Source: Candidatus Nomurabacteria bacterium (GTDB lineage Bacteria; Patescibacteriota; Minisyncoccia; Phycocordibacterales; UBA9973). Taken from it: DNA of 60,043 nucleotides. The notes below the pieces were generated by a model. It did not search any database. It had not been told where the DNA came from and saw only the letters and a program-made list of their open reading frames with translations. The position numbers and the translations under genes are program-made. Positions within the stretch are counted from its first letter, which is position 1. Every line of letters begins with the position of its first letter. Of the stretch, positions 17,106 through 55,644 are shown one piece after another. The stretch is from contig CALRAE010000004.1 of NCBI GenBank assembly GCA_943350445.1, positions 1 through 60,043 of the forward strand, written 5' to 3'.

Positions 17106-17124
17106 ATGTATATTGTAGCATTTT

Positions 17125-17264
17125 TAAAATTTGTCGCAGGCAAAAACTCTTTCTTGGCATAACTTTTTATAAAGCAATCTATCTGGCGCTGGTGCGCCAG
17201 CGAACTGCTCGGCGCGCCCGCCTGCGCAAGGCTTTCTAAAAAGTACGCCTGCGACGAGTTTTTA
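17125..17264. repeat. Long hairpin element, family B
   Basis: Arms tgtcgcaggc/gcctgcgacg and actttttataaagc/gctttctaaaaagt; inner hairpin ctggcgc-tggt-gcgccag; core ctcggcgcgcccgcctgcg. Confidence 0.75.
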
Positions 17265-17525
17265 AACGAGTTCAATCTTCTTCATCAAAGCGTTGTAGCG
17301 AGCTTTGCTTGTTCTCTCTAAATATTTCAAATGAGTACGTCGATCAGCCACCATCTTGATGAGGCCTCGGCGAGAGTGATTATCCTTTTTATGCTTTTTT
17401 AAATGCTTCGCTAATTCATCGATTGCGGCAGAAATAACAGCCACCTGCACCTCTGGAGAGCCTGTATCCTTGTCGTGAATCTGATTTTTCTTAATAATTG
17501 TCTGCTTTTTCTTGGTTGCTAACAT
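17262..17525 (-). CDS. rpsO: 30S ribosomal protein S15
   Basis: DTGSPEVQVA, HKKDNHSRRGL. Confidence 0.97.
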   Translation of the reverse strand: MLATKKKQTIIKKNQIHDKDTGSPEVQVAVISAAIDELAKHLKKHKKDNHSRRGLIKMVADRRTHLKYLERTSKARYNALMKKIELV

Positions 17526-20886: not shown

Positions 20887-22530
20887 TTACTTACGGACAC
20901 CGTGTTTAATATGCAATTTCGCCACTTCTTCTTCTTCGAGTTCTTCTTTTTTCTCTTTTCCTTTATCACCGAGCGCTTTGAGTTCAGCGTCAGAAAGTAA
21001 TTCAAAAGATTTCACTAATTCAGACAGGGCTTCTATTGTATTTTTCTCTGGATTCTCTAAGACAACTTCGAGGAGAGCGTTTAGCATCCATCCCATGCGT
21101 GGTCCAGGTTTGATGCCGAGATCTTTCATTAGAAAATTACCATCTATTTTAAGTTGCCCGACAGAGATCGGGTCTCTTAGGGCTTCTTCAATCATTGCGA
21201 AATATTTTCGCAGACGATACGGCGCTTCTTTCTTCTTCATCCCTACCCTATCACACTCACGAATGTTCATCAGGAGCCAAATATTTTCCACCCCGACTTT
21301 TGCAATGATTCTACGCACTGCGCTCAAAGTAATTAATTCCGTGTCAGAGAAAAACATATGATTGCGAACAAGCTTCTCCACCAGCTCAGTTTCTTTTTTA
21401 GGAAATTTGAGCCTCTCCATTATCTTTTTCGCCATTCGAGCGCCGACTACTTCATGACCATAAAAAGTATATTTTTTCTTGGAAGCAGGCACCTTCCCCG
21501 ACAAAAATTCGAGGAGTCGTGGGTCCCCTGTCCTATTGCCTCCGAGGGCGAAGGCGGGGGAATTTTTCGTCGGGGAAGGTTCTGCAAATCTCCTCGTTTT
21601 TGGTTTTCCAATATCATGAAAAAGGGCTGCGAGCCTTATCTCTAAAGGCCAATCTTTATCCGCTGCATGCTGTAGCGCATGGAGTAAATGATCCCACACG
21701 TCATAAATATGTTCACCGAGTTGTTCACAACCTATCCCCTCCTCAAGTTCTGGAATAATATTTTTAAGCAATCCAAATTTCTGCAACATCACGATTCCAG
21801 CTGCAGGATTTTTAGATATAATTATTTTTGTAAACTCATCACGAATTCTTTCTTCTGATATTTTTTTTATTAACTCAGAATTTTTCAAAATACTTTCCAT
21901 CGTTTCGTGAGAAATAGAAAAATCTAATTGGCAAGAAAAACGAACCGCACGAAGCATTCGAAGTGCATCTTCTGTAAAACGATCATCTGCATTCCCTACT
22001 GCTCTAATAGTCTTGTCCTTTATGTCCTTTAAACCGCCAAATATGTCCTTTATAGAGTTTTTCCCAGATAGGTTGAGCGCCATGGCATTTACCCTGAAAT
22101 CACGTCTCTGAAGGTCATCTTCGAGCTTTTCACTGAATTTAACCTCATCTGGATGCCTAAAGTCAGTGTATTTTGCTTCTATCCTGTATGGAGTAACCTC
22201 AACTATTAGATAGTTAGGTTCTAGTGTTTCTTGTGAAACATCACTTTTTAATGTTTCACGTGCAACATCCTCCTTTTTTGTTTCACGCGGAACGCACACC
22301 CCCACAGTCCCAAAGGTATTCTCGTATACAGTCTTTTCAAATAGCTTTATAATCTGGTCTGGTTTGGCATTCGTTGTCACATCCCAGTCCTTAGGAACCC
22401 TCTCCATTAGAAGATCTCGAACACAACCACCCACTAAATACGCCTCAAAACCCCCTTTTTCTAAGGTTTTGGTTACATGTGAAACTTCTTTAGGTATTTT
22501 TGATATTAAGTTTTGGTTTACAAGATCCAC
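20887..22530 (-). CDS. cca: CCA tRNA nucleotidyltransferase with HD domain
   Basis: YLVGGCVRD, DWDVTT, RRDFRVNA, EDALRMLRA, HDIGKP; start moved to GTG 22530 so it does not overlap the tRNA. Confidence 0.92.
   Translation of the reverse strand: MDLVNQNLISKIPKEVSHVTKTLEKGGFEAYLVGGCVRDLLMERVPKDWDVTTNAKPDQIIKLFEKTVYENTFGTVGVCVPRETKKEDVARETLKSDVSQETLEPNYLIVEVTPYRIEAKYTDFRHPDEVKFSEKLEDDLQRRDFRVNAMALNLSGKNSIKDIFGGLKDIKDKTIRAVGNADDRFTEDALRMLRAVRFSCQLDFSISHETMESILKNSELIKKISEERIRDEFTKIIISKNPAAGIVMLQKFGLLKNIIPELEEGIGCEQLGEHIYDVWDHLLHALQHAADKDWPLEIRLAALFHDIGKPKTRRFAEPSPTKNSPAFALGGNRTGDPRLLEFLSGKVPASKKKYTFYGHEVVGARMAKKIMERLKFPKKETELVEKLVRNHMFFSDTELITLSAVRRIIAKVGVENIWLLMNIRECDRVGMKKKEAPYRLRKYFAMIEEALRDPISVGQLKIDGNFLMKDLGIKPGPRMGWMLNALLEVVLENPEKNTIEALSELVKSFELLSDAELKALGDKGKEKKEELEEEEVAKLHIKHGVRK
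21491..21580. repeat. 90-nt in-frame hairpin element inside cca
   Basis: accttccccgacaaaaattc / gaatttttcgtcggggaaggt arms; encodes the PSPTKNSPAFALGGNRTGDPRLLEFLSGKV insert. Confidence 0.8.
22225..22294. promoter_or_regulatory. Three parS-like sites at 27-bp spacing inside cca
   Basis: tgtttcttgtgaaaca, tgtttcacgtgcaaca, tgtttcacgcggaacg vs consensus TGTTNCACGTGAAACA. Confidence 0.8.
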
Positions 22531-23888: not shown

Positions 23889-24638
23889 ATGATAACCACA
23901 TACATATACACATTTGGAAGTATTCTGGTGGTCAGCCTTATTTCATTCATAGGAATTTTTACTCTTGCAATAAAAGAAGAAGTTCTTCGTAAATATATTT
24001 TTATATTCATCAGCATTGCTGTGGGCGCTCTTTTGGGCGATTCTTTTATACATTTAATTCCTGAAGCATTTGCAGATACGACTAACCAAGTTCTTACTAG
24101 TGTCCTAATAATTGCAGGAATACTTTTCTTTTTTATTCTAGAAAAATTTCTCCATTGGCACCACCACGGAGAAGACAAAGAGGACACACACATTCATCCA
24201 GTTGGAAAGTTGGTTTTGTTTTCTGATGGTGTCCACAATTTCATGGACGGCATGATCATAGCAGCGAGCTTCTTGGTGAGCATCCCTGTGGGACTAGCCA
24301 CGACTCTAGCTGTTATTTTACACGAAATACCTCAAGAAATAGGGGATTTTGCTGTGCTTTTACATTCTGGATATACAAAACAGAGGGCCCTCTGGCTTAA
24401 TTTTCTATCAGCCCTAACAGCGATTGCAGGTGCTATTGTGCTCTTTAGTCTAGGGGAGGTGGCAGAGGCATCAACATCTTGGTTTCTACCCATTGCAGCT
24501 GGTGGATTTATATATATTGCCCTTGCAGACTTGATACCTGAACTTCAAAAAACAAAAGAGGCTCGATATTCAATCATGCAGATACTCGCAGTCGTAGCTG
24601 GAGTCTTGGCGATGGTTGCTTTGACTTTTTTAGAGTAA
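23889..24638 (+). CDS. ZIP-family metal transporter
   Basis: HLIPEA, His-rich loop, DGVHNF, HEIPQEIGDF. Confidence 0.94.
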   Translation: MITTYIYTFGSILVVSLISFIGIFTLAIKEEVLRKYIFIFISIAVGALLGDSFIHLIPEAFADTTNQVLTSVLIIAGILFFFILEKFLHWHHHGEDKEDTHIHPVGKLVLFSDGVHNFMDGMIIAASFLVSIPVGLATTLAVILHEIPQEIGDFAVLLHSGYTKQRALWLNFLSALTAIAGAIVLFSLGEVAEASTSWFLPIAAGGFIYIALADLIPELQKTKEARYSIMQILAVVAGVLAMVALTFLE

Positions 24639-24736
24639 AAACATAAATAGCACAAAATTTTTTCTGTCCGAGGGATCCACCCTGTACTCAGGGAAGGGCG
24701 CAGGACAAAAAATTTTGTGCTATTTATGTTTTTACT
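24634..24736. repeat. Long hairpin element, family A (30-bp perfect arms)
   Basis: Arms 24634-24663 / 24707-24736; 37-nt core shared with 48006-48042. Confidence 0.9.
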
Positions 24737-24884
24737 TTTTAAAATTTTTAGTGGTCAGGAATAATTTTGTTTCCGTCAAAACAAAATTTTCACGACCCTG
24801 CCTCGCTTGTTTTCTTTACTAAGAAAACATAGCTGTGGCTCAAACTCAATTAGAAAAAACCCAAGCAGTTGGATTTTCTCTAAT

Positions 24885-26171
24885 TTAGTTTGCCCAACTC
24901 CAGTCAGTACCTGGATTTTTAGCGCTAAAAACTTCGAAGTGAATGTGCGGGCCAGTAGAACGTCCTGTATTACCGACATAGCCGATGATCTCACCACGAG
25001 CCACTGTTGATCCAGTCCTGGTGCCCAACCTAGACATATGCGCATAGAGGGTCTTCGTGCCATTTGGATGTTGTACGATTGCCATATTTCCATAACCTCC
25101 ACCACAACGTGTCTGCCCAACCCTACAACCAGTTTTAACTATAATAACTGTGCCGGATGCAGATGCGTATATAGGCGTACCCGTAGGCGCGCCTATATCT
25201 ATACCACGATGTCCAGGACCATGGAGACCTTGGGTTTTGTGTCCAGTAGGAACTGGGTTTATGAAAAATCCAGTAAGGTTTTGTATTGGATTAGCATCAT
25301 AATAATTCTTATCGCGAATCGGAGCGGAGCTCAAGTTTGAAGCTGGCTTGTCACCTCCTTCATCGGCCATGTCGCCACCAGGAACCATTATTTTGTCACC
25401 TATAGCTAGCTTACTATCAAATGCAATATCATTATAGAAAGCTATTTCACTCACATCTACCTTGTAAAGCTTGGCAATACTCTTTAATGTCTGCCCTTTG
25501 GCTACAGTATGCTCAAGTCCAGAAACAGGCAAAATAAAAAGCACGTCGCCTTCGACGAGCTTGTCACTTTTTTTCATATCATTCGCCCACAATATAGTAT
25601 TTGCAGAGACATCGAACATTTTGGCTATAGCAGAGATAGAATCACCCTTTCGAACCACATAGACACTAGTCTGCAGGGAAGATGGGTCCACCGCATCAGT
25701 GCCGTCTGAGACACCGAGGGGGCCTGTCGCCGGAAGCATGGCATTATCAGAGACGATATTAACATTTACACTAGTATTTATAGGCTCTTCTTTGCTTATA
25801 TCCTTTTTATTTTCCTTTTTCTCGATTACTTCTTGAAAAATAGAGGCTGAAGACACATTGGCCTGTAAAAGTGCCATAGTTTGGGAATTTTGAGGTAATT
25901 TATTATAAAGTTGAGTAGAATCTGTTGTGTTTGTTTGTGCATATGCCTCATCACCTAAAAAGGAAGATAGGAAGCCAGCGTTTGCTGGCAAGGGCTTTAT
26001 CATATAGGAAGCCGACAAGAAAAAGCCAAATAAAATGGAAAATACCAGAATAGAGCGGAATATGTTAAATAGTGATTTTATAAAACAATCTAAAGTATCG
26101 AAAGATTTCCTCTCTAACCCTTTTAAAATAAGGGTAGAATCGCAGGACGACCGAAATTGTACTGCAAACAA
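24885..26171 (-). CDS. LysM x2 plus M23 peptidoglycan endopeptidase (start uncertain)
   Basis: YVVRKGDSIS and HTVAKGQTL LysM repeats; HRGID, YAHM, STGPHIHFE. Confidence 0.92.
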   Translation of the reverse strand: MFAVQFRSSCDSTLILKGLERKSFDTLDCFIKSLFNIFRSILVFSILFGFFLSASYMIKPLPANAGFLSSFLGDEAYAQTNTTDSTQLYNKLPQNSQTMALLQANVSSASIFQEVIEKKENKKDISKEEPINTSVNVNIVSDNAMLPATGPLGVSDGTDAVDPSSLQTSVYVVRKGDSISAIAKMFDVSANTILWANDMKKSDKLVEGDVLFILPVSGLEHTVAKGQTLKSIAKLYKVDVSEIAFYNDIAFDSKLAIGDKIMVPGGDMADEGGDKPASNLSSAPIRDKNYYDANPIQNLTGFFINPVPTGHKTQGLHGPGHRGIDIGAPTGTPIYASASGTVIIVKTGCRVGQTRCGGGYGNMAIVQHPNGTKTLYAHMSRLGTRTGSTVARGEIIGYVGNTGRSTGPHIHFEVFSAKNPGTDWSWAN

Positions 26172-26395
26172 AGGTTCTCGCGACGGTTACTGTCTTCTCC
26201 ATCTTCCAGCCAGCTCATACCATACCTCTCTTCAGTGCTACCCCCATAGAATAGTTCAAAAAGGGTCAAAAGTCAATCTAGTTGGGGATAACGAGTGAAT
26301 AGCTAAAATTTGACAAGACTGTAAAAAAGGTGTATAATTGATAAATAGTCTTAAAAAAATTAGTGTTGAAAAATTAAAAACTATATAATATATTT

Positions 26396-27811
26396 ATGGA
26401 TACAGGACCACAAAATAATGAAGAGACAAATAGAATCGAAGCAGAACTAGAGGCAACGAAGTTGCAAGATGAACAAGCTAGAGCAGAAGGGAATCCACCA
26501 AGTAGTACGCCCACACCCCCTTTTTGGACAGAAACAAAGACAAAAATAGCGAAAATAACAGGCTTGACAGCGGCGACGGGTGTCGGTCTTTTCGGTGCTT
26601 ATAAAGGGACAGAAAAGGGAGCACAATTTGCAGGAGATAAGACTAGTGATTGGATGACCCCTAAAGCAAAAAATGTCCAACAAGTGCCCGCAAGACCAAA
26701 CATGAATCCTGGCTACACAAATAATGAACCAAATTTACCACTAATGGTAAATCCAGTTATAACACCCACAAATTCTACAGAATTTTCTAGAACCAATCTT
26801 CCTCCAGGCCTACCACCTTTAACACCACCATCCGTCAATACTAATAGTTTAGAAAGTGCTGTAACGGCTGCACTAGCTAGAGCAAATGCTGAATCAGCAA
26901 AGTTGAGGCAACAAGTAGAAGATGCAGCAGCCAAGCAAGCAGCACTAGAGAAAAAACATGCTGCGGCACTAGAAGAACAAGCAAAAATGTTTCGACGAGA
27001 AGTACAAATAGTACAGAATGTACAAACACCAATAGAAACAGTGGCACCAGAAAAAACCATAGAGCAAATGAAGGAGGAAAGGAGAGAAATGGAAGCACAA
27101 AAAAGAATGGCGGAAATAGAAGCAAGAAATACAGCAACAGAAGAAAATAATCGCAATGCCCCAGTAGGATACAAAATGGGATCTACAACAGAATTACCAC
27201 CACTTAGAGCTCCAGCAATGAATAAGGCTCCTACGCCAAAACCAACAGGGGTACAATTTAATACAAGGCCTGATGAAGGAGTAAAATTTAATGCCACCAT
27301 CACAGAAGCAAACAGAGAAGCAATAGTAAATGCAATACCGAGACCTCCAGTAGGAGTAAATGTCATAAGCAGAGGTATGGGTGGATACAATATAACCACT
27401 GCCCCAAATCCAGGCCCAGTAAATATTGCTACGGAAGCTCCAACCAACGTTAATGACGGAAACCCTTTCAAGTTATCACAAAAAGCACTTGAAGAAATCG
27501 AGGATATTTACGAAAGAAACTTGGTAAAAATTTTCCCTAAAAACACGCTAGGGAAGTGGATGAATATAAACAAAGAGAGCGCTTATGATTTTATGAGTAA
27601 ACCGAGAGAAAAAGTCCCGAAAGAATACGAACACATATTTACCACTGAAGAATATAAACGCCTCTGCACTTTCTTAGAGAAACTCAAGGTAACAACCGGT
27701 GAGCTTCCCAAGCTCGGTGCCTCTACTGGAAAGCCTGAAAGCATACAAGACTATATGAATAGAACGATGCAAAAAGCCGCATCACAAGGATTACTGTCTA
27801 AAATAAAATAG
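26396..27811 (+). CDS. Pro/Asn/Thr-rich hypothetical protein with coiled coil
   Basis: 471-aa ORF with promoter TTGACA-N17-TATAAT (26310-26338) and a terminator. Confidence 0.8.
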   Translation: MDTGPQNNEETNRIEAELEATKLQDEQARAEGNPPSSTPTPPFWTETKTKIAKITGLTAATGVGLFGAYKGTEKGAQFAGDKTSDWMTPKAKNVQQVPARPNMNPGYTNNEPNLPLMVNPVITPTNSTEFSRTNLPPGLPPLTPPSVNTNSLESAVTAALARANAESAKLRQQVEDAAAKQAALEKKHAAALEEQAKMFRREVQIVQNVQTPIETVAPEKTIEQMKEERREMEAQKRMAEIEARNTATEENNRNAPVGYKMGSTTELPPLRAPAMNKAPTPKPTGVQFNTRPDEGVKFNATITEANREAIVNAIPRPPVGVNVISRGMGGYNITTAPNPGPVNIATEAPTNVNDGNPFKLSQKALEEIEDIYERNLVKIFPKNTLGKWMNINKESAYDFMSKPREKVPKEYEHIFTTEEYKRLCTFLEKLKVTTGELPKLGASTGKPESIQDYMNRTMQKAASQGLLSKIK

Positions 27812-27847
27812 AAAAACAAAATATCCCGAAAGGGGTATTTTGTTTTT
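27812..27847. terminator. Intrinsic terminator
   Basis: aaaaacaaaatatccc-gaaa-ggggtattttgttttt. Confidence 0.85.
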
Positions 27848-27855
27848 ATGCTAAG

Positions 27856-29949
27856 ATGTTATCTGTGGAAGAACACTTAAAAGGATTAAATAGTGAACAA
27901 AAAATAGCAGCACTCCACAAGGATGGCCCGCTTCTTATTATTGCTGGCGCTGGCGCAGGGAAAACAAAAACTATCACGCACAGAATTGTAAATTTAATAA
28001 AAAATGGAGTCGCTCCAGAGAAAATTCTCGCCGTCACCTTTACCAACAAAGCAGCAAAAGAAATGCGAGAGAGAATCATCACAGAAATTGAGAAGAATGC
28101 AAAAGGACAAGAAAGGGTTCCTTTCGTTAGCACCTTCCACTCGCTCGGAGTTTACATTATTAAAGAAAACGCTCGACTGCTAGGGCTGACCAAGTATTTC
28201 ACTATTCTAGATGAAGGAGATGCCACAGGATTTATTAAAGACATATTAAAAGAGCTTGGAGTAGACCCAAAACAATACGATCCGAAGAAAATAAAAAGTG
28301 TAATCTCTCGCGAAAAAGGTAAATTTACCCATCTTACAGATTTTACAGAAAGGGAAGGAAACGGCTCGAACCCTTTTTCGAAAATAGTAGCACAGGTTTG
28401 GAATCTATATGAAAAACAAAAGATGAAAGAGAATTCACTCGATTTTGATGATCTACTTTTGAAAGCGACAAAACTCTTGAAAGACAACGTGGAAATCCGT
28501 AAAATGTATCAAGAAAAATGGGAGTACGTGCACATCGACGAGTATCAAGACACCAATGAGGTGCAGTATTTAATGTCGAAAATGCTAGCAGAAAAGAATA
28601 AAAATATCTGTGTGGTGGGAGATGCTGATCAAAATATTTATTCTTGGCGTGGAGCAAATCTGAAAAATATTTTAAATTTTGAAAAAGATTATCCGAATGC
28701 AAAAATAATTTTGCTCGAAGAGAATTACAGGTCGACCCAAAACATCCTAGAGGCTGCAAATGTGGTAATCAAAAAAAATAAATACCGCCCAGACAAAAAT
28801 TTATTTACAAAAAATGAAACCGGAGAGAAGATAGGATTGTACGAAGCACTCAACGAAGTAGATGAAGCAGACTTTGTAGCGACAAAGATTCTAGAAATAC
28901 GAGATGGAAGCTCCCCAGACTCTTTCTTTGCGGGGTCGCTGTCTCCGCGTGTTCGCGGAGCGCTGCCTCTCGGCTCGTCAGCCTGCGAGACACCCCTCAA
29001 AGAAAAGTCCGGAGAGCTTCCCAGCGACCCCGACAAGATAGAACCTGTTCTGCTGTCAGAAATATGCATCTTATATCGCGCGAACTTCCAATCACGAGCA
29101 CTCGAGGAAGCGATGCTCCGATACAACATCCCATACCAAGTCCTTGGTGTTAAATTCTTCGAAAGAAAAGAAATCAAAGATACTTTGGCATATTTGCGTG
29201 CAGCTTTAAACAGAGACAGCCTTTCCGATATAAAAAGAATTATAAATTTCCCAGCGCGAGGCATCGGCAAAGTCACGTTAGTAAAAATTTTTGCAAATGA
29301 AATAGAAAGCTTGCCACCCAAGGTAAGAATCAAAATAAATAGTTTCTATGAAACACTCGAAGAAATAAAGGAAAAAATTCATAGTACCAAAACAAGTGAT
29401 GTAATAAAATTCGTGGTGAAAAAGTCTGGAATTGAAGCAGAACTTTCTTCGGGGACTGAAGAAGATATAGAAAGACTTGAAAACATTAAAGAGTTAGCCA
29501 CTTTAGCACTTAAATATGATAATTTAGACGCCGGCCGTGGCATAGAAAAGCTTCTGGAAGATGCTTCACTAGCATCGGACCAGGACTCATTAATCGTGAA
29601 TGAGGAGAAATTAAAAGAAAAGAAAGAGATAAATGCAGTGAAACTTATGACTGTGCATGCTTCAAAAGGCCTCGAGTTTAAATACGTCTTTATCACTGGT
29701 CTAGAAGATGGCCTGTTCCCACATCAAAGACGAAGTGAGGACGTAAATATCGACACCGAAGAAGAGCGTAGACTATTTTATGTGGCGGTGACTCGTGCGC
29801 GAAGTAAATTATTTTTATCCTTCGCAGATTATCGGACTATTTTCGGCTCACGACAAATAAATGCTCCATCGGAATTTATTTCCGACATTCCAGCCGATTT
29901 ATTAGAGAAAGAAGGAGAGAAAGGAGGAATTAAAACTATTTACATCTAA
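27856..29949 (+). CDS. pcrA: UvrD/PcrA DNA helicase
   Basis: AGAGAGKT, TFTNKAA, DEYQDTN, VGDADQNIY, LMTVHASKGLEF, EERRLFYV. Confidence 0.96.
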   Translation: MLSVEEHLKGLNSEQKIAALHKDGPLLIIAGAGAGKTKTITHRIVNLIKNGVAPEKILAVTFTNKAAKEMRERIITEIEKNAKGQERVPFVSTFHSLGVYIIKENARLLGLTKYFTILDEGDATGFIKDILKELGVDPKQYDPKKIKSVISREKGKFTHLTDFTEREGNGSNPFSKIVAQVWNLYEKQKMKENSLDFDDLLLKATKLLKDNVEIRKMYQEKWEYVHIDEYQDTNEVQYLMSKMLAEKNKNICVVGDADQNIYSWRGANLKNILNFEKDYPNAKIILLEENYRSTQNILEAANVVIKKNKYRPDKNLFTKNETGEKIGLYEALNEVDEADFVATKILEIRDGSSPDSFFAGSLSPRVRGALPLGSSACETPLKEKSGELPSDPDKIEPVLLSEICILYRANFQSRALEEAMLRYNIPYQVLGVKFFERKEIKDTLAYLRAALNRDSLSDIKRIINFPARGIGKVTLVKIFANEIESLPPKVRIKINSFYETLEEIKEKIHSTKTSDVIKFVVKKSGIEAELSSGTEEDIERLENIKELATLALKYDNLDAGRGIEKLLEDASLASDQDSLIVNEEKLKEKKEINAVKLMTVHASKGLEFKYVFITGLEDGLFPHQRRSEDVNIDTEEERRLFYVAVTRARSKLFLSFADYRTIFGSRQINAPSEFISDIPADLLEKEGEKGGIKTIYI
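28906..29021. repeat. In-frame hairpin element (family B) inside pcrA
   Basis: ggaagctc..tctttg.gggg / cccc.caaaga..gagcttcc arms; 17 nt identical (inverted) to 46627-46643. Confidence 0.85.
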
Positions 29950-31517: not shown

Positions 31518-32383
31518 AAGCAAAAAAATCACTCGGGCAAAATTTCCTAAAATCAGAAGTCGCTCTGCGACAGATTGTGGAAGCGGGAGAAATAAAACCT
31601 GACGATATTATTTTAGAAATAGGGCCGGGAAAGGGGGCACTGACGGAGAAGCTTTTAGAGAAGGCAAAAATGGTGATAGCGGTAGAAAAAGACTATGAAC
31701 TTATTTTCTTTCTAAAAGAAAAATTCGCCGAACAAATAAAGTCGGGGGCACTTATTTTAATACAAGGAGATATTTTAGAATTTAGTGTTAACAAAACAGT
31801 TCTGGAACTTTTTTCAGGTCCTCGGTTCCCCGGGTCCCTCTCCCGGCCAGACCATGCAAAAAGCTCAGAACTGTTTTGTTATAAGCTAATCGCAAACATC
31901 CCATACAACATCACTGGTGCAATTTTGAAAAAGTTTTTAACAGAAGAAAACCAGCCAGAGAGGATGGTGCTAATGGTGCAACACGAAGTCGCGACTAGAA
32001 TTTTGGCTCGTAACGGCAAAGAAAGTATTTTATCTATCTCGGTTAAAGCATATGGCACCCCAAAAATGGTCGCAAAAGTTGATAAAAGATATTTCAGCCC
32101 AGCTCCCAAGGTGAATTCAGCAATCATTGCCATAAAAAATATTTCAAGAAAGAATTTTACAGAAAATATGGGGAGTCGCGCTTTAATGGACGGTGCGCGA
32201 CATGATTTCGCTAAATCAGAAGAAAGGTTTTGGGGAATAGTCAAAGCAGGCTTTGCCCATAAGAGAAAAAAGCTCTCTGGCAACCTAAAAGACATATGTC
32301 AAAGACCGTCTTTGACACCTTATGAAAACAAAAGAGCCGAGGATTTGTCCTTAAAAGATTGGATTATCTTAAGTAGGGGATAA
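31514..32383 (+). CDS. rsmA: 16S rRNA adenine dimethyltransferase RsmA/KsgA
   Basis: KKSLGQNFL, LEIGPGKGALT, ANIPYNIT, F.PAPKV.S. Confidence 0.96.
   Translation: MKAKKSLGQNFLKSEVALRQIVEAGEIKPDDIILEIGPGKGALTEKLLEKAKMVIAVEKDYELIFFLKEKFAEQIKSGALILIQGDILEFSVNKTVLELFSGPRFPGSLSRPDHAKSSELFCYKLIANIPYNITGAILKKFLTEENQPERMVLMVQHEVATRILARNGKESILSISVKAYGTPKMVAKVDKRYFSPAPKVNSAIIAIKNISRKNFTENMGSRALMDGARHDFAKSEERFWGIVKAGFAHKRKKLSGNLKDICQRPSLTPYENKRAEDLSLKDWIILSRG
31789..31881. repeat. 93-nt in-frame hairpin element inside rsmA
   Basis: 16-bp perfect arms taacaaaacagttctg/cagaactgttttgtta around a GC-rich core. Confidence 0.85.
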
Positions 32384-45237: not shown

Positions 45238-46590
45238 ATGTCAAAAAGAAATTTTATACTTTTAATAATAATTCTGGTCATCGTAATAATTGCTGTTTTA
45301 GGATTTCTGTATCTACGAAAAGACACAACCACCCCGACAGATCCTGGCATAGGGACAAACTTTTTCTCACAATTTAATCCTTTTGGAACAAAGCCCACAC
45401 CTCCAGTCACCAAGCCTCCAGTAGATGTCTCTGGATACCAGCCACCGACTGCACCAGAACAAACCAAACTAATGAAGGTTTCTAGTATGCCTGTAGCTGG
45501 ATTCACTGTATTCACTAAAGAAAGGCTCAAGGACGTACCCGTAGCCCCCCTCCTTGTGGAGGAGGGGGTTCCGGGTGGTGAAACTCCTACCACACCGACA
45601 GCAAAAAAATCGACAAAAGTTACCCCGACTGCACCACTCACTGAATTCGTCTTGGCTTTGAGGTATGTGGCAAGATCTAACGGTAACATCTACCAAACAT
45701 TTGTAGATAAAATCCAAGAAAGAAAATTCTCTAAAACTGTAATCCCAAAAGTGTATGATGCTTATTTTGGCAACCGCGGGAATTCTGTAGTTATGCGATA
45801 TTTAAAATCTAATGATGAGACGATAGAAACCTTCGTTGGAGCTTTACCAAAAGAATTACTAGGAGGGGACACAACCATAAACAACGAAGTTAAAGGCTCC
45901 TTTTTGCCAAATAATGTAAAAGATGCCAGCGTATCGCCTGATGGTTCAAAAATTTTCTACTTGTTTGAGGATGAAAATGGTGTTGTGGGAACAATTTTAA
46001 ATTTTACAGACAACAAGAAAACTCAAATTTTTGATTCTCCTTTTACTGAATGGTTGTCAGTTTGGCCAAATAGTAGCCTGATAAATCTTACAACCAAACC
46101 TTCTGCGAATATCCCTGGATATGTTTATACGATGAATTCGAGCGGAAGCAATTTAAGTAAAATCTTGGGCGACATCAACGGACTCACGACTTTAGGTGGC
46201 CCAAATAGTAAATCGATCCTCTACGGCGATGATAAACTGTCTTTGAATATTTACAATATTGACAAAAGAAGCTCAGAGAAACTAGGATTAAAAACACTTC
46301 CAGAAAAATGTGTCTGGAATAAAACAGGGGACTTTATATATTGTGCTGTACCGATAACGGTTGAAGGAAATTTATATCCAGACGCTTGGTATCAAGGGGT
46401 AACAACTTTTGATGATCAATTTTGGAAAATAGATGTAAAAACTGGCAACACTACAACAATCTTGGACCCAGTAGATGAAAAAGGTGGGACAGCCATAGAT
46501 GGAACCAAACTCACCCTAGATGAAAACGAAAATTACCTATTTTTCGTAAACAAAAAAGATTCTTTTCTTTGGAAGCTGGATCTTAAGTAA
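45238..46590 (+). CDS. Membrane-anchored beta-propeller-like protein
   Basis: Signal anchor from MSKRNF, Pro/Thr linker, SPDGSKIFY TolB/WD40-like blades. Confidence 0.8.
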   Translation: MSKRNFILLIIILVIVIIAVLGFLYLRKDTTTPTDPGIGTNFFSQFNPFGTKPTPPVTKPPVDVSGYQPPTAPEQTKLMKVSSMPVAGFTVFTKERLKDVPVAPLLVEEGVPGGETPTTPTAKKSTKVTPTAPLTEFVLALRYVARSNGNIYQTFVDKIQERKFSKTVIPKVYDAYFGNRGNSVVMRYLKSNDETIETFVGALPKELLGGDTTINNEVKGSFLPNNVKDASVSPDGSKIFYLFEDENGVVGTILNFTDNKKTQIFDSPFTEWLSVWPNSSLINLTTKPSANIPGYVYTMNSSGSNLSKILGDINGLTTLGGPNSKSILYGDDKLSLNIYNIDKRSSEKLGLKTLPEKCVWNKTGDFIYCAVPITVEGNLYPDAWYQGVTTFDDQFWKIDVKTGNTTTILDPVDEKGGTAIDGTKLTLDENENYLFFVNKKDSFLWKLDLK

Positions 46591-46706
46591 AAAAAATTAA
46601 GAAATAAACTTTTGAAGGGGTTTCGTAGGCTGACGAGCCGAGAACTTCAGAATTTTTCAAGCTTCGAAAAATTCGTACCGGAAAAAGTTTGATTTCTTAA
46701 TTTTTT
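46591..46706. repeat. Long hairpin element, family B, filling the gap between two convergent stop codons
   Basis: Arms aaaaaattaagaaataaactttt / aaaagtttgatttcttaatttttt; core cgtaggctgacgagccgag. Confidence 0.85.
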
Positions 46707-47187
46707 AAATAGAGCCCGTATATTTTATCACCACTCGGCGAGAAAGGCCCATACCTGTTGACTCAGTTTTAAGATCTGTCGCACCAGAGAGGAATTCGTG
46801 TACAATACGACGTTCAAAAGCTGACATCGGATCAACTTCAATGCTTGATTTGAAATATCGTGCCCTTTCTCCCATCATGTGAGCCACGGCTCGGACGTTT
46901 TCTACACGCTTTTTTTGAAAACCATTAATATCAATTAAAATATTGGAGGAATTAGATTCTGGATCTTTTACTTTATCTGTTATATCAACCTCAATCATTC
47001 TACGAACAAGATGATTTAGGGCGTACAAAGCTTCACCATCATGACCTATAAAAAAGTGCGGTTCATTGACCTCGACTGAGAACCAGGTGCTGTCTGCACC
47101 ATCAGGAGTAATGACAATATCTTTTACCACAACCCCAGTTTTCTCAACCAACTCTTTTATTAAATTTTGTATCTTTGACTTATCCAT
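46705..47187 (-). CDS. jag: Jag/KhpB-like KH-R3H RNA-binding protein
   Basis: IGHDGEALYAL, PMSAFERRIVH; follows yidC. Confidence 0.88.
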   Translation of the reverse strand: MDKSKIQNLIKELVEKTGVVVKDIVITPDGADSTWFSVEVNEPHFFIGHDGEALYALNHLVRRMIEVDITDKVKDPESNSSNILIDINGFQKKRVENVRAVAHMMGERARYFKSSIEVDPMSAFERRIVHEFLSGATDLKTESTGMGLSRRVVIKYTGSI

Positions 47188-47939: not shown

Positions 47940-47973
47940 AGTCCAATTCTATATGAAAATGCGAGAAAATGCG

Positions 47974-48073
47974 AGAAAATGTACAATTGCACAAATTTTA
48001 CACTTCCGAGGGTCCCACTCGGTAATCCGAGAAGGGCGCAGGAATGTAAAATTTGTGCAATTGTACATTTTCT
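47974..48073. repeat. Long hairpin element, family A (29-bp perfect arms)
   Basis: Arms 47974-48002 / 48045-48073; core 48006-48042. Confidence 0.9.
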
Positions 48074-55523: not shown

Positions 55524-55644
55524 TATCAAAAAAGATAGAAAATACTTTTTAAAACCATTGCGACCAGCTATCGAGCCGAGTATAGCAAAATGCGAGCACG
55601 CATTTATGTGCGGTTTTTAAAAATACTTTCTATCTTTTTTGATA
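55524..55644. repeat. Long hairpin element, family B, overlapping the ruvC stop
   Basis: Arms tatcaaaaaagatagaaa.. / ..tttctatcttttttgata; core cgagccgag plus inner hairpin aaatgcg-agca-cgcattt. Confidence 0.8.

Follow-up and report, generated by a model that had tools for sequence, protein, structure and literature searches.

Are two families of hairpin repeats in a very small bacterial genome circular permutations of a single motif? This question is raised by a stretch of 60,043 nucleotides from Candidatus Nomurabacteria bacterium (GenBank assembly GCA_943350445.1, contig CALRAE010000004.1, positions 1 to 60,043 of the forward strand), referred to below as the window. It is contig C4 of a 617-kb genome in 15 contigs, with 38% G+C and 99.6% completeness. 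A first-pass annotation of the window had noted that repeats of a family A, with the order arm-CC-GAG...CGCA-GG-arm, and of a family B, with the order CGCA-GGC-loop-GCC-GAG, contain the same short blocks around the same G:C helix. It had proposed that both represent one fold under selection, possibly recognized as single-stranded DNA or self-processing. Our analysis led us to favour another answer: A and B are probably separate families of hairpin repeats, and the motif that they share is a small, nearly symmetric purine loop beside a G:C helix.

Two families of structured repeats

A census of inverted repeats identified about 30 elements in the genome, which fall into families A, B (with three subtypes), C, D and E. 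Family A is represented in the window by two copies, both on the plus strand. Copy 1 (24626-24744) lies between the convergent genes of a ZIP transporter and an M23 peptidase. Its core (24668-24704) reads CCGAG-GGATCCA-[CCCTG TACT CAGGG]-AAGGG-CGCAGG, with CCGAG at 24668-24672 and CGCAGG at 24699-24704, and is flanked by 38-nt arms (24626-24663 and 24707-24744) that are 92% complementary; the left arm runs into the last 13 nt of the ZIP gene. Copy 2 (47974-48073), which is 74% identical to copy 1, occupies the yidD-yidC gap, antisense to the operon, and has its core (48006-48042) between perfect 29-nt arms (47974-48002 and 48045-48073). In this family the GG/CC pair forms the base of the outer arm.

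Each of the three subtypes of family B has a copy in the window. The GC-rich copy is a 116-nt palindrome (28906-29021, minus strand) in frame in pcrA/uvrD and antisense to this gene, with the module CGCAGGCTGACGAGCCGAG at 28969-28987 on the minus strand. The copy of the AT-rich, three-way-junction subtype (46588-46709, plus strand) carries the module CGTAGGCTGACGAGCCGAG at 46624-46642, beginning with CGTAGG, and fills the whole gap between the convergent stop codons of jag and of an open reading frame (ORF) without assigned function. The copy of the third subtype (17122-17266, minus strand; module CGCAGGCGGGCGCGCCGAG at 17208-17226) is intergenic. In the predicted folds of family B, the GG/CC helix is a hairpin with a GACG cap. 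A second hairpin begins 7 nt past CCGAG in both A copies of the window and in the B copies at 46624 and 17208, and 8 nt past it in the pcrA copy. The motif letters, the two positions of the GG/CC helix and the hairpin 7 to 8 nt past CCGAG had all been read correctly in the first-pass annotation. DNA contigs of 6 lake-water sequencing runs were found, and no RNA run was listed; in the 4 that were compared with the window, its sequence was unchanged and nothing had been joined, lost or inverted at the elements. On two other contigs there were copies related to the pcrA-type element, facing one way or the other.

We used covariance models to follow both families in other genomes. The A model (R1, built from 3 copies) identified 7 copies in the genome and had matches in 15 of 36 genomes of the same genus and in 1 of 24 genomes that represent further genera of the order, while a strict A pattern run on 401 genomes of the order matched in the window's own genome only. 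The B model (R2, 51 nt, built from 5 copies) identified 11 copies in the genome and had matches in 30 of the 36 same-genus genomes and in 4 of the 24 from other genera. For each family, this is far more than chance would give. An alignment of family A, comprising 31 of the 56 listed matches (those whose loci were returned), had 94.8% of its cells paired; 10 of its 14 base pairs changed on both sides, and its covariation score was reached by none of 500 shuffles. The alignment of family B (34 of about 198 matches) was 99.1% paired, and 4 of its 7 pairs covaried, again to an extent reached by 0 of 500 shuffles. These findings bore out one half of the proposal made for the locus, namely that both families are folded and selected for structure. 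The other half, a single common fold, was not supported by the letters that each family conserves.

In family A, the most conserved letters (GGTCCCR and GAAGGG) lie in the inner helix and its linkers. The core GNCCCR...GAAGGG was kept in at least 26 of 31 copies by a strict pattern, the remaining copies being one letter off. CGAGG was present in 21 copies, CGCAG also in 21, and both in only 18 of the 31; in the low-scoring copies, the 5' strand carried GTG, GTA or TGA, and the 3' strand CAA, TAA or AAA. Family B, on the other hand, keeps the motif. CCGAG was conserved in 33 of 34 copies, the 5' strand read CGCA in 20 copies, CG-A in 7, CGTA in 3, CGGA in 2, and CACA and CATA in 1 each, the cap loop was GACG in 27 of the 34, and the closing C:G pair was retained in all 33 distinct rows. 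Conservation of CGCA and GAG next to the same helix, which one fold common to both families would entail, was thus seen in B and in no more than part of A. Two further B copies, found by synteny rather than by the motif, read U-GA-[helix]-GA-A, the closing C:G being replaced by U:A.

The most conserved parts of family B are GGCTGACGAGCC and an AGCA loop, situated in the capped hairpin and in the loop of the second hairpin, respectively. These invariants (GGCYGACGRGCC and the AGCA loop) are absent from family A. The letters that A and B conserve best are accordingly without a partner in the other family, which speaks against one permuted fold.

Family B extends far beyond the genus. Its exact 19-mer was found in at least 122 stretches of a collection of species-representative genomes, where about 4 would be expected by chance, and nearly all the matches listed were in records with titles such as Nomurabacteria, Paceibacterota, Zambryskibacteria, Kaiserbacteria or Minisyncoccia. 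In 119 Patescibacteria loci with enough flanking sequence, the first and second base pairs adjacent to the module were paired in 117 and 118 cases, with GC/UA/CG exchanges. The second hairpin was found in 115 of these loci; it started 7 to 9 nt past GAG in 108 of the 115, and its loop was AGCA in 79 and AGTA in 14. Two records from outside the Candidate Phyla Radiation (L156 and L214) contained the 19-mer without the build of the element, which is about the number expected by chance, and none of the 3 viral contigs that contained a 16-mer had this build. Family B is a phylum-wide three-way junction in which the loops are fixed and the helices are free.

Both folds are strand-specific. In 28 of 31 A copies and 32 of 34 B copies, the motif strand folded better than its complement, the advantage being about 6 kcal/mol under RNA parameters and about 3 kcal/mol under DNA parameters. 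This difference overlaps with the conserved features, is drawn from related copies and is not an independent proof. The A helices contained 44 G-U pairs as against 3 A-C pairs. The working form may be one particular single strand, and the predicted strand-specific fold would be compatible with recognition of such a strand.

The permutation test and the nature of the shared loop

A circular permutation linking A and B can be drawn topologically, as a succession of helix, loop, helix and hairpin, and to this extent the original idea stands. Neither the alignment of the window's A copies nor further letters lent it support. In the permuted topology, B has a helix, a loop, a helix and then two helices, where A has one. 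We also permuted A by cutting it at the hairpin tip and exchanging the halves, and aligned the product to four B copies, with 500 shuffles as a control. In all 8 comparisons made with the two A copies of the window, between 181 and 425 of the 500 shuffles scored at least as well as the real sequence. Hybrids of A and B were not observed either: the 1.1 Mb of DNA scanned for them contained 35 A cores and 89 B hairpins, and in no case did an A core and a B hairpin lie within 250 nt of each other. Furthermore, the letters CGTA-GG...GGGT-AAAG of several A variants already stand in the order of B, with no permutation needed. Since the main form of A resembles B permuted and the variant form resembles B unpermuted, at least one of these likenesses must be coincidental.

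The loop itself offers an explanation for the resemblance. In family B it consists of C-G(Y)A-G opposite C-GA-G, enclosed between Watson-Crick pairs; it is a plain CGAG/CGAG in 7 of 34 copies, and the others have one extra letter on the 5' strand. Judged from these letters, it would be a tandem G.A mismatch to which a bulged pyrimidine may be added. The stable C-GNA-G mini-hairpin that had been invoked for this site fails in those 7 copies, in which its middle letter is missing. Tandem sheared G.A mismatches have 5'-YGAR-3' on both strands, are stable in DNA as well as in RNA and are twofold symmetric. B resembles them in having GA opposite GA between Watson-Crick pairs. In family A, by contrast, covariation favours a register (G19:C46, with G-U and A-U exchanges) that leads to a 4x3 loop, and A reaches the tandem arrangement only if B's pairing is forced onto it, at a penalty of 6.6 kcal/mol (RNA parameters). 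Kink-turn and sarcin-ricin readings of the loop were considered and not adopted; its strand order is unlike that of a standard kink-turn.

Because such a loop is nearly twofold symmetric, it reads alike from the capped side and from the open side, which gives the look of a permutation. A symmetric loop would in this way mimic circular permutation without any rearrangement of the fold, and short symmetric loop motifs can pass for circular permutation more generally. A and B have 11 letters in common beside the G:C helix. By a rough estimate, this sharing would be modestly beyond chance, at about 0.1-0.5% for this pair of families and a few percent over some 10 family pairs.

Several observations weigh against separate families with a merely similar loop. 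First, the alignments of A and B were fitted to models built from the motif, and are hence biased towards motif and structure, and the G.A pairing is read from sequence only. Second, the 11 letters taken together with the flanking G:C helix and the 7-nt spacing of the hairpin somewhat exceed what chance would produce. Third, the loop letters of B are constant while the flanking helices covary, which points to recognition over mere stability. Fourth, no GC-rich 5-mer is more frequent inside the elements than CCGAG (32 occurrences in 6.3 kb, versus 599 in the other 611 kb), which is found in all five families, so that a common ancestry of A and B, or a protein binding both, is possible. Finally, a third A copy, located on contig C8, behaved differently from those of the window: when it was permuted and compared with two AT-rich B copies, only 2 and 9 of 500 shuffles matched the real score. 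The same copy left unpermuted gave 15 and 86 of 500 with these two B copies, a result that we cannot explain.

We considered the possibility that one trans-acting protein, working on a folded single strand of DNA or RNA, binds or cuts at the GAG/CG(Y)A loop next to the G:C helix. A and B would then be functional permutations of one handle, and might stem from a single-stranded circle that was opened in more than one place. The fixed loop letters amid covarying helices and the presence of CCGAG in every family agree with this, as do the strand-specific fold, the equal spacing to the next hairpin and a weak correlation between the copy numbers of A and B (rho 0.37, p 0.02, in 37 genomes whose kin are not independent). 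Yet about one third of the A copies lack the loop letters while the A core is kept, and the register supported by covariation gives A a different loop. In addition, A occurs without B in 2 of the 37 genomes and B without A in 17, and no candidate protein was found. We consider a shared recognition site of this kind rather unlikely.

A broader version appears improbable to us. It would make all families cis-acting handles of one Patescibacteria mobilization system working on a folded single strand, with the purine loop bound or cut and a circular intermediate (junction CGCA-GG/CC-GAG) opened or re-inserted at different points. If it were true, the families would be real circular permutations, produced by the mechanism itself. 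With separate families, the reading that we prefer, the sole feature common to A and B is the purine loop beside a G:C helix, phylum-wide in B, which provides a concrete target for binding or nicking. The letters that are truly shared between families narrow the search for the mover.

Candidate movers and comparison with known systems

Could the repeats be akin to repetitive extragenic palindromic (REP) sequences or REPINs, moved by Y1 HUH transposases similar to REP-associated tyrosine transposases (RAYTs)? CGTAG and the adjoining hairpin would then correspond to the GTAG and palindrome of such elements. The 617-kb genome contains two intact genes with PF01797 matches over the cut-off of 23 (C5:11836-12057 and C13:365-586, 33.3 and 30.0 bits). 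The corresponding ORFs, 211 and 227 aa long, share an NHFH(I/L)L motif (L006:1279-1914, minus strand, on C5, and L007:164-847, plus strand, on C13). The sole NCBIfam match of these ORFs was to the REP-associated tyrosine transposase family (REP_Tyr_transpos), with 34.5 and 39 bits, under the cut-off of 80. Up to 12 such genes per genome are present in the genus, and C-GTAG-GC-hairpin occurs in 3 of 34 B copies.

If these enzymes moved the repeats, their numbers would be expected to follow one another. Yet no such relationship was observed in the 37 genomes (Spearman rho -0.04 for B and 0.05 for A). One genome (G431) had 27 B matches and no RAYT-like match, the closest relative (G413) had 14 B and 9 A matches and none, and a third (G414) had 12 RAYT-like matches and no B; altogether, B was present without a RAYT-like match in 5 of the 37. 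The flanks of 13 RAYT-like genes, scanned over 350 nt in each direction, contained no A or B motif. According to passages in PMC2817692, PMC3337134, PMC3116915 and PMC5581495, REPs are extragenic, their palindrome is the conserved unit, and RAYT genes are usually single-copy and flanked by REPs. The present elements resemble them as hairpin repeats that often follow genes, by their strand-specific fold, by the RAYT-like Y1 HUH genes of the genome and by the G-T-A-G next to a GC hairpin in some B copies. They differ in that RAYT flanking and co-varying numbers are lacking, that the RAYT-like genes are divergent and reach 12 per genome, and that the core rather than the arms is conserved. Many copies are also genic: 4 of the 7 A copies and the pcrA copy of B lie inside long ORFs, at odds with the extragenic position of REPs. 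Mobilization by these transposases is in our opinion quite improbable.

The RAYT-like proteins form a Y1 HUH family of their own in genomes of 0.5-0.9 Mb, with the signature YYHxYNRG...NHFH(I/L)L...YIHLNP, a length of about 210-230 aa and 30-57% identity. With up to 12 matches per genome, some of them with stop codons, they are unusual compared with single-copy RAYTs. In passages of a 2026 preprint, a RAYT is mentioned only beside an archaeal rbcL.

Other candidates were sought in the 99.6%-complete genome. Reverse transcriptase and DUF559 were not found there, TnpB gave only a weak match under the cut-off, and no parent element was found, such as the autonomous insertion sequence with which a miniature inverted-repeat transposable element (MITE) shares its terminal inverted repeats. 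A small GIY-YIG gene of 79 aa (L139:955-1194, minus strand, equivalent to C8:22754-22993) adjoins a tRNA gene, and a GIY-YIG domain is also present in uvrC. The 79-aa protein may be YhbQ-like, and no link to the repeats emerged; the A copy nearest to its gene, in dus, is about 1.5 kb away. Ssn proteins, by comparison, are small GIY-YIG nucleases for single-stranded DNA that possess their own SRM/NTS hairpin repeats flanking the ssn genes, the NTS being about 30 nt long with a fixed palindrome (passages in PMC11893778). The present repeats are likewise dispersed hairpins with oriented, non-palindromic conserved flanks, and those of Ssn are recognized as single-stranded DNA. The short, fixed, ssn-flanking NTS differ from the present repeats, of which the nearest A copy located is that at about 1.5 kb from the sole small GIY-YIG gene.

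A search of the whole window with Rfam at gathering thresholds returned 4 tRNAs only. At permissive settings, the regions 24600-24760, 46570-46730 and 28890-29060 yielded only long hairpins of the microRNA type, the other hits being far under threshold. In circularly permuted ribozymes (hammerhead I-III, twister P1/P3/P5), the whole catalytic core is conserved in every permutation. The present families resemble these ribozymes in that shifting the open end leaves a drawing with the same helices, but they have only 11 letters in common, and what each family conserves best is private to it. The B cap CUGACGAG, which is close to the hammerhead box, turned out to be a covarying hairpin tip rather than a junction, and the hammerhead reading of it was ruled out. 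Despite a compact strand-specific core, covarying helices and fixed loops, a circularly permuted self-cleaving ribozyme of the hammerhead or twister type, or another structured RNA, thus appears highly improbable: no Rfam family reached threshold, and no conserved core is common to the two "permutations". Among the 22 same-genus orthologs of pcrA, the motif strand is sense in at least 6 and antisense in 5; efficient cleavage would sever essential mRNAs, and a function at the RNA level would call for a single orientation. The self-processing once envisaged for the locus is likewise disfavoured.

The closest parallel in behaviour is provided by the Rickettsia palindromic elements (RPEs), described in passages of PMC10969869 as palindromic repeats of several families in a reduced genome, located in frame in genes as well as between genes. 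Like them, the present elements are palindromes of about 100-150 bp that lie in frame in unrelated housekeeping genes and in intergenic regions and have no transposase of their own. The two occur in different phyla, and their likeness is claimed for behaviour only. Moreover, the arms are free here, conservation of the core, which is a stacked hairpin in A and a three-way junction in B, extends over much of Patescibacteria, and one gene site, in pcrA, takes different families in both orientations. By analogy, the elements would work like RPEs, but with a conserved core and free arms. A full-text literature search retrieved no description of such palindromic in-frame elements for Patescibacteria, and structured palindromic repeats that interrupt essential genes in frame, in bacteria with the smallest genomes, are apparently new for this phylum.

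Insertion sites and further elements

In the scheme that we propose, A and B belong to a larger set of non-coding, hairpin-forming repeats of Patescibacteria, with at least five families in this genome. An element comprises a strand-specific structured core that is conserved and long arms that are variable yet paired. Copies lie just past stop codons or in frame at surface-tolerant spots of housekeeping genes, either orientation being possible at one site; those past stop codons often separate convergent genes, at positions where plain hairpins resembling terminators are found in relatives. The elements would be mobile.

The insertion site in pcrA was particularly informative. The product of the host gene (27856-29949, plus strand) has 697 aa and contains the UvrD-helicase and UvrD_C domains. 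In other genera, all 7 orthologs compared have only 21 nt here and no element. Among 22 same-genus orthologs, B was antisense in 5 and sense in 6 (5 recognized by pattern and one, L094, by eye), 2 were short (24 and 45 nt), and 9 had other sequence, including other families. When B copies in both orientations at this orthologous site were compared, the flanking helices covaried and the loop letters were constant, although the encoded peptides differed. That the letters are fixed despite different peptides indicates that selection acts on the nucleic acid, possibly for recognition, beyond stability. Directly adjoining the window's copy is an extra arm-like piece (CAGCGACCCCGAC..., 29022-29047, strand unassigned), which forms an 81% inverted repeat with 28916-28941 and looks like what is left of another copy, either a second or a flipped one, at this pcrA site.

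This surface site of PcrA is a hot spot, occupied within one genus by B in either orientation, by other families or by almost nothing. One ortholog (L091) contains two elements in tandem. The arms at the site are almost wholly different between species and are still paired.

The genic copies of family A lie in frame in dus, uvrC, the gene of an FAD-linked oxidase and a holB-like gene; the motif strand is sense in dus and antisense in the three others. The intergenic copy 2 could be compared with an empty site, as the yidD-yidC gap of the closest relative (84% YidC identity) has no A and measures only 9 nt. Such a short empty site implies that the arms came in together with the core. In this filled/empty pair, no direct repeat flanks the element, as the target-site duplication of a MITE would, and a tandem 10-mer is present on one side only. 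This tandem repeat (47956-47981; AAAATGCGAG twice, then AAAATG) adjoins the left arm of copy 2. The outermost 7 nt of the right arm are an inverted copy of the native flank, as if the arm had been lengthened by copying of the flank, and the left arm of copy 1 likewise reaches 13 nt into the ZIP gene. In the rnpA-yidD-yidC regions of three relatives (L114, L115 and L119), unrelated long palindromes occupy the same intergenic spots, which seem to collect hairpin elements of many kinds.

The gap downstream of jag was occupied by B in 4 of 29 genomes, two in each orientation, and elsewhere often contained plain terminator-like hairpins. Intergenic copies have T-run ends and fill the space between convergent stop codons; a role as terminators is plausible.

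The other families provided further instances of the shared letters. Family C (31786-31884, minus strand) is a palindrome in frame in rsmA/ksgA, in which CC-GAG lies beside a GG:CC helix with a single U opposite. Family D (21489-21582, plus strand), in frame in cca, contains GGGTCCC and CCGAGGG, with CCGA in the apical loop. Family E (55524-55644, plus strand) is intergenic and carries AGCTATCGAGCCGAG, a relative of the capped hairpin of B. GGGTCCC is common to families A, C and D. The occurrence of CCGAG in C, D and E and of the GGGTCCC of A in C and D hints at modular descent among the families.

Two modified forms of B were also encountered in the genome. In a variant found at C1:29859-29977, C3:44079-44203 and C8:36402-36517, the capped hairpin reads GGC-GA-GC-GACG-GC-GA-GCC, so that the tandem GA is 2 bp from the GACG loop instead of 4, and the bulged letter is absent. 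Long composites of the B type (C10:9500-9651, C11:5351-5506, C5:35324-35483, C5:46805-46963 and others) have an AT-rich hairpin of about 45 nt in place of the GACG cap; in these, CC-GAG has become CGAC-GAG and CGCAGG is retained.

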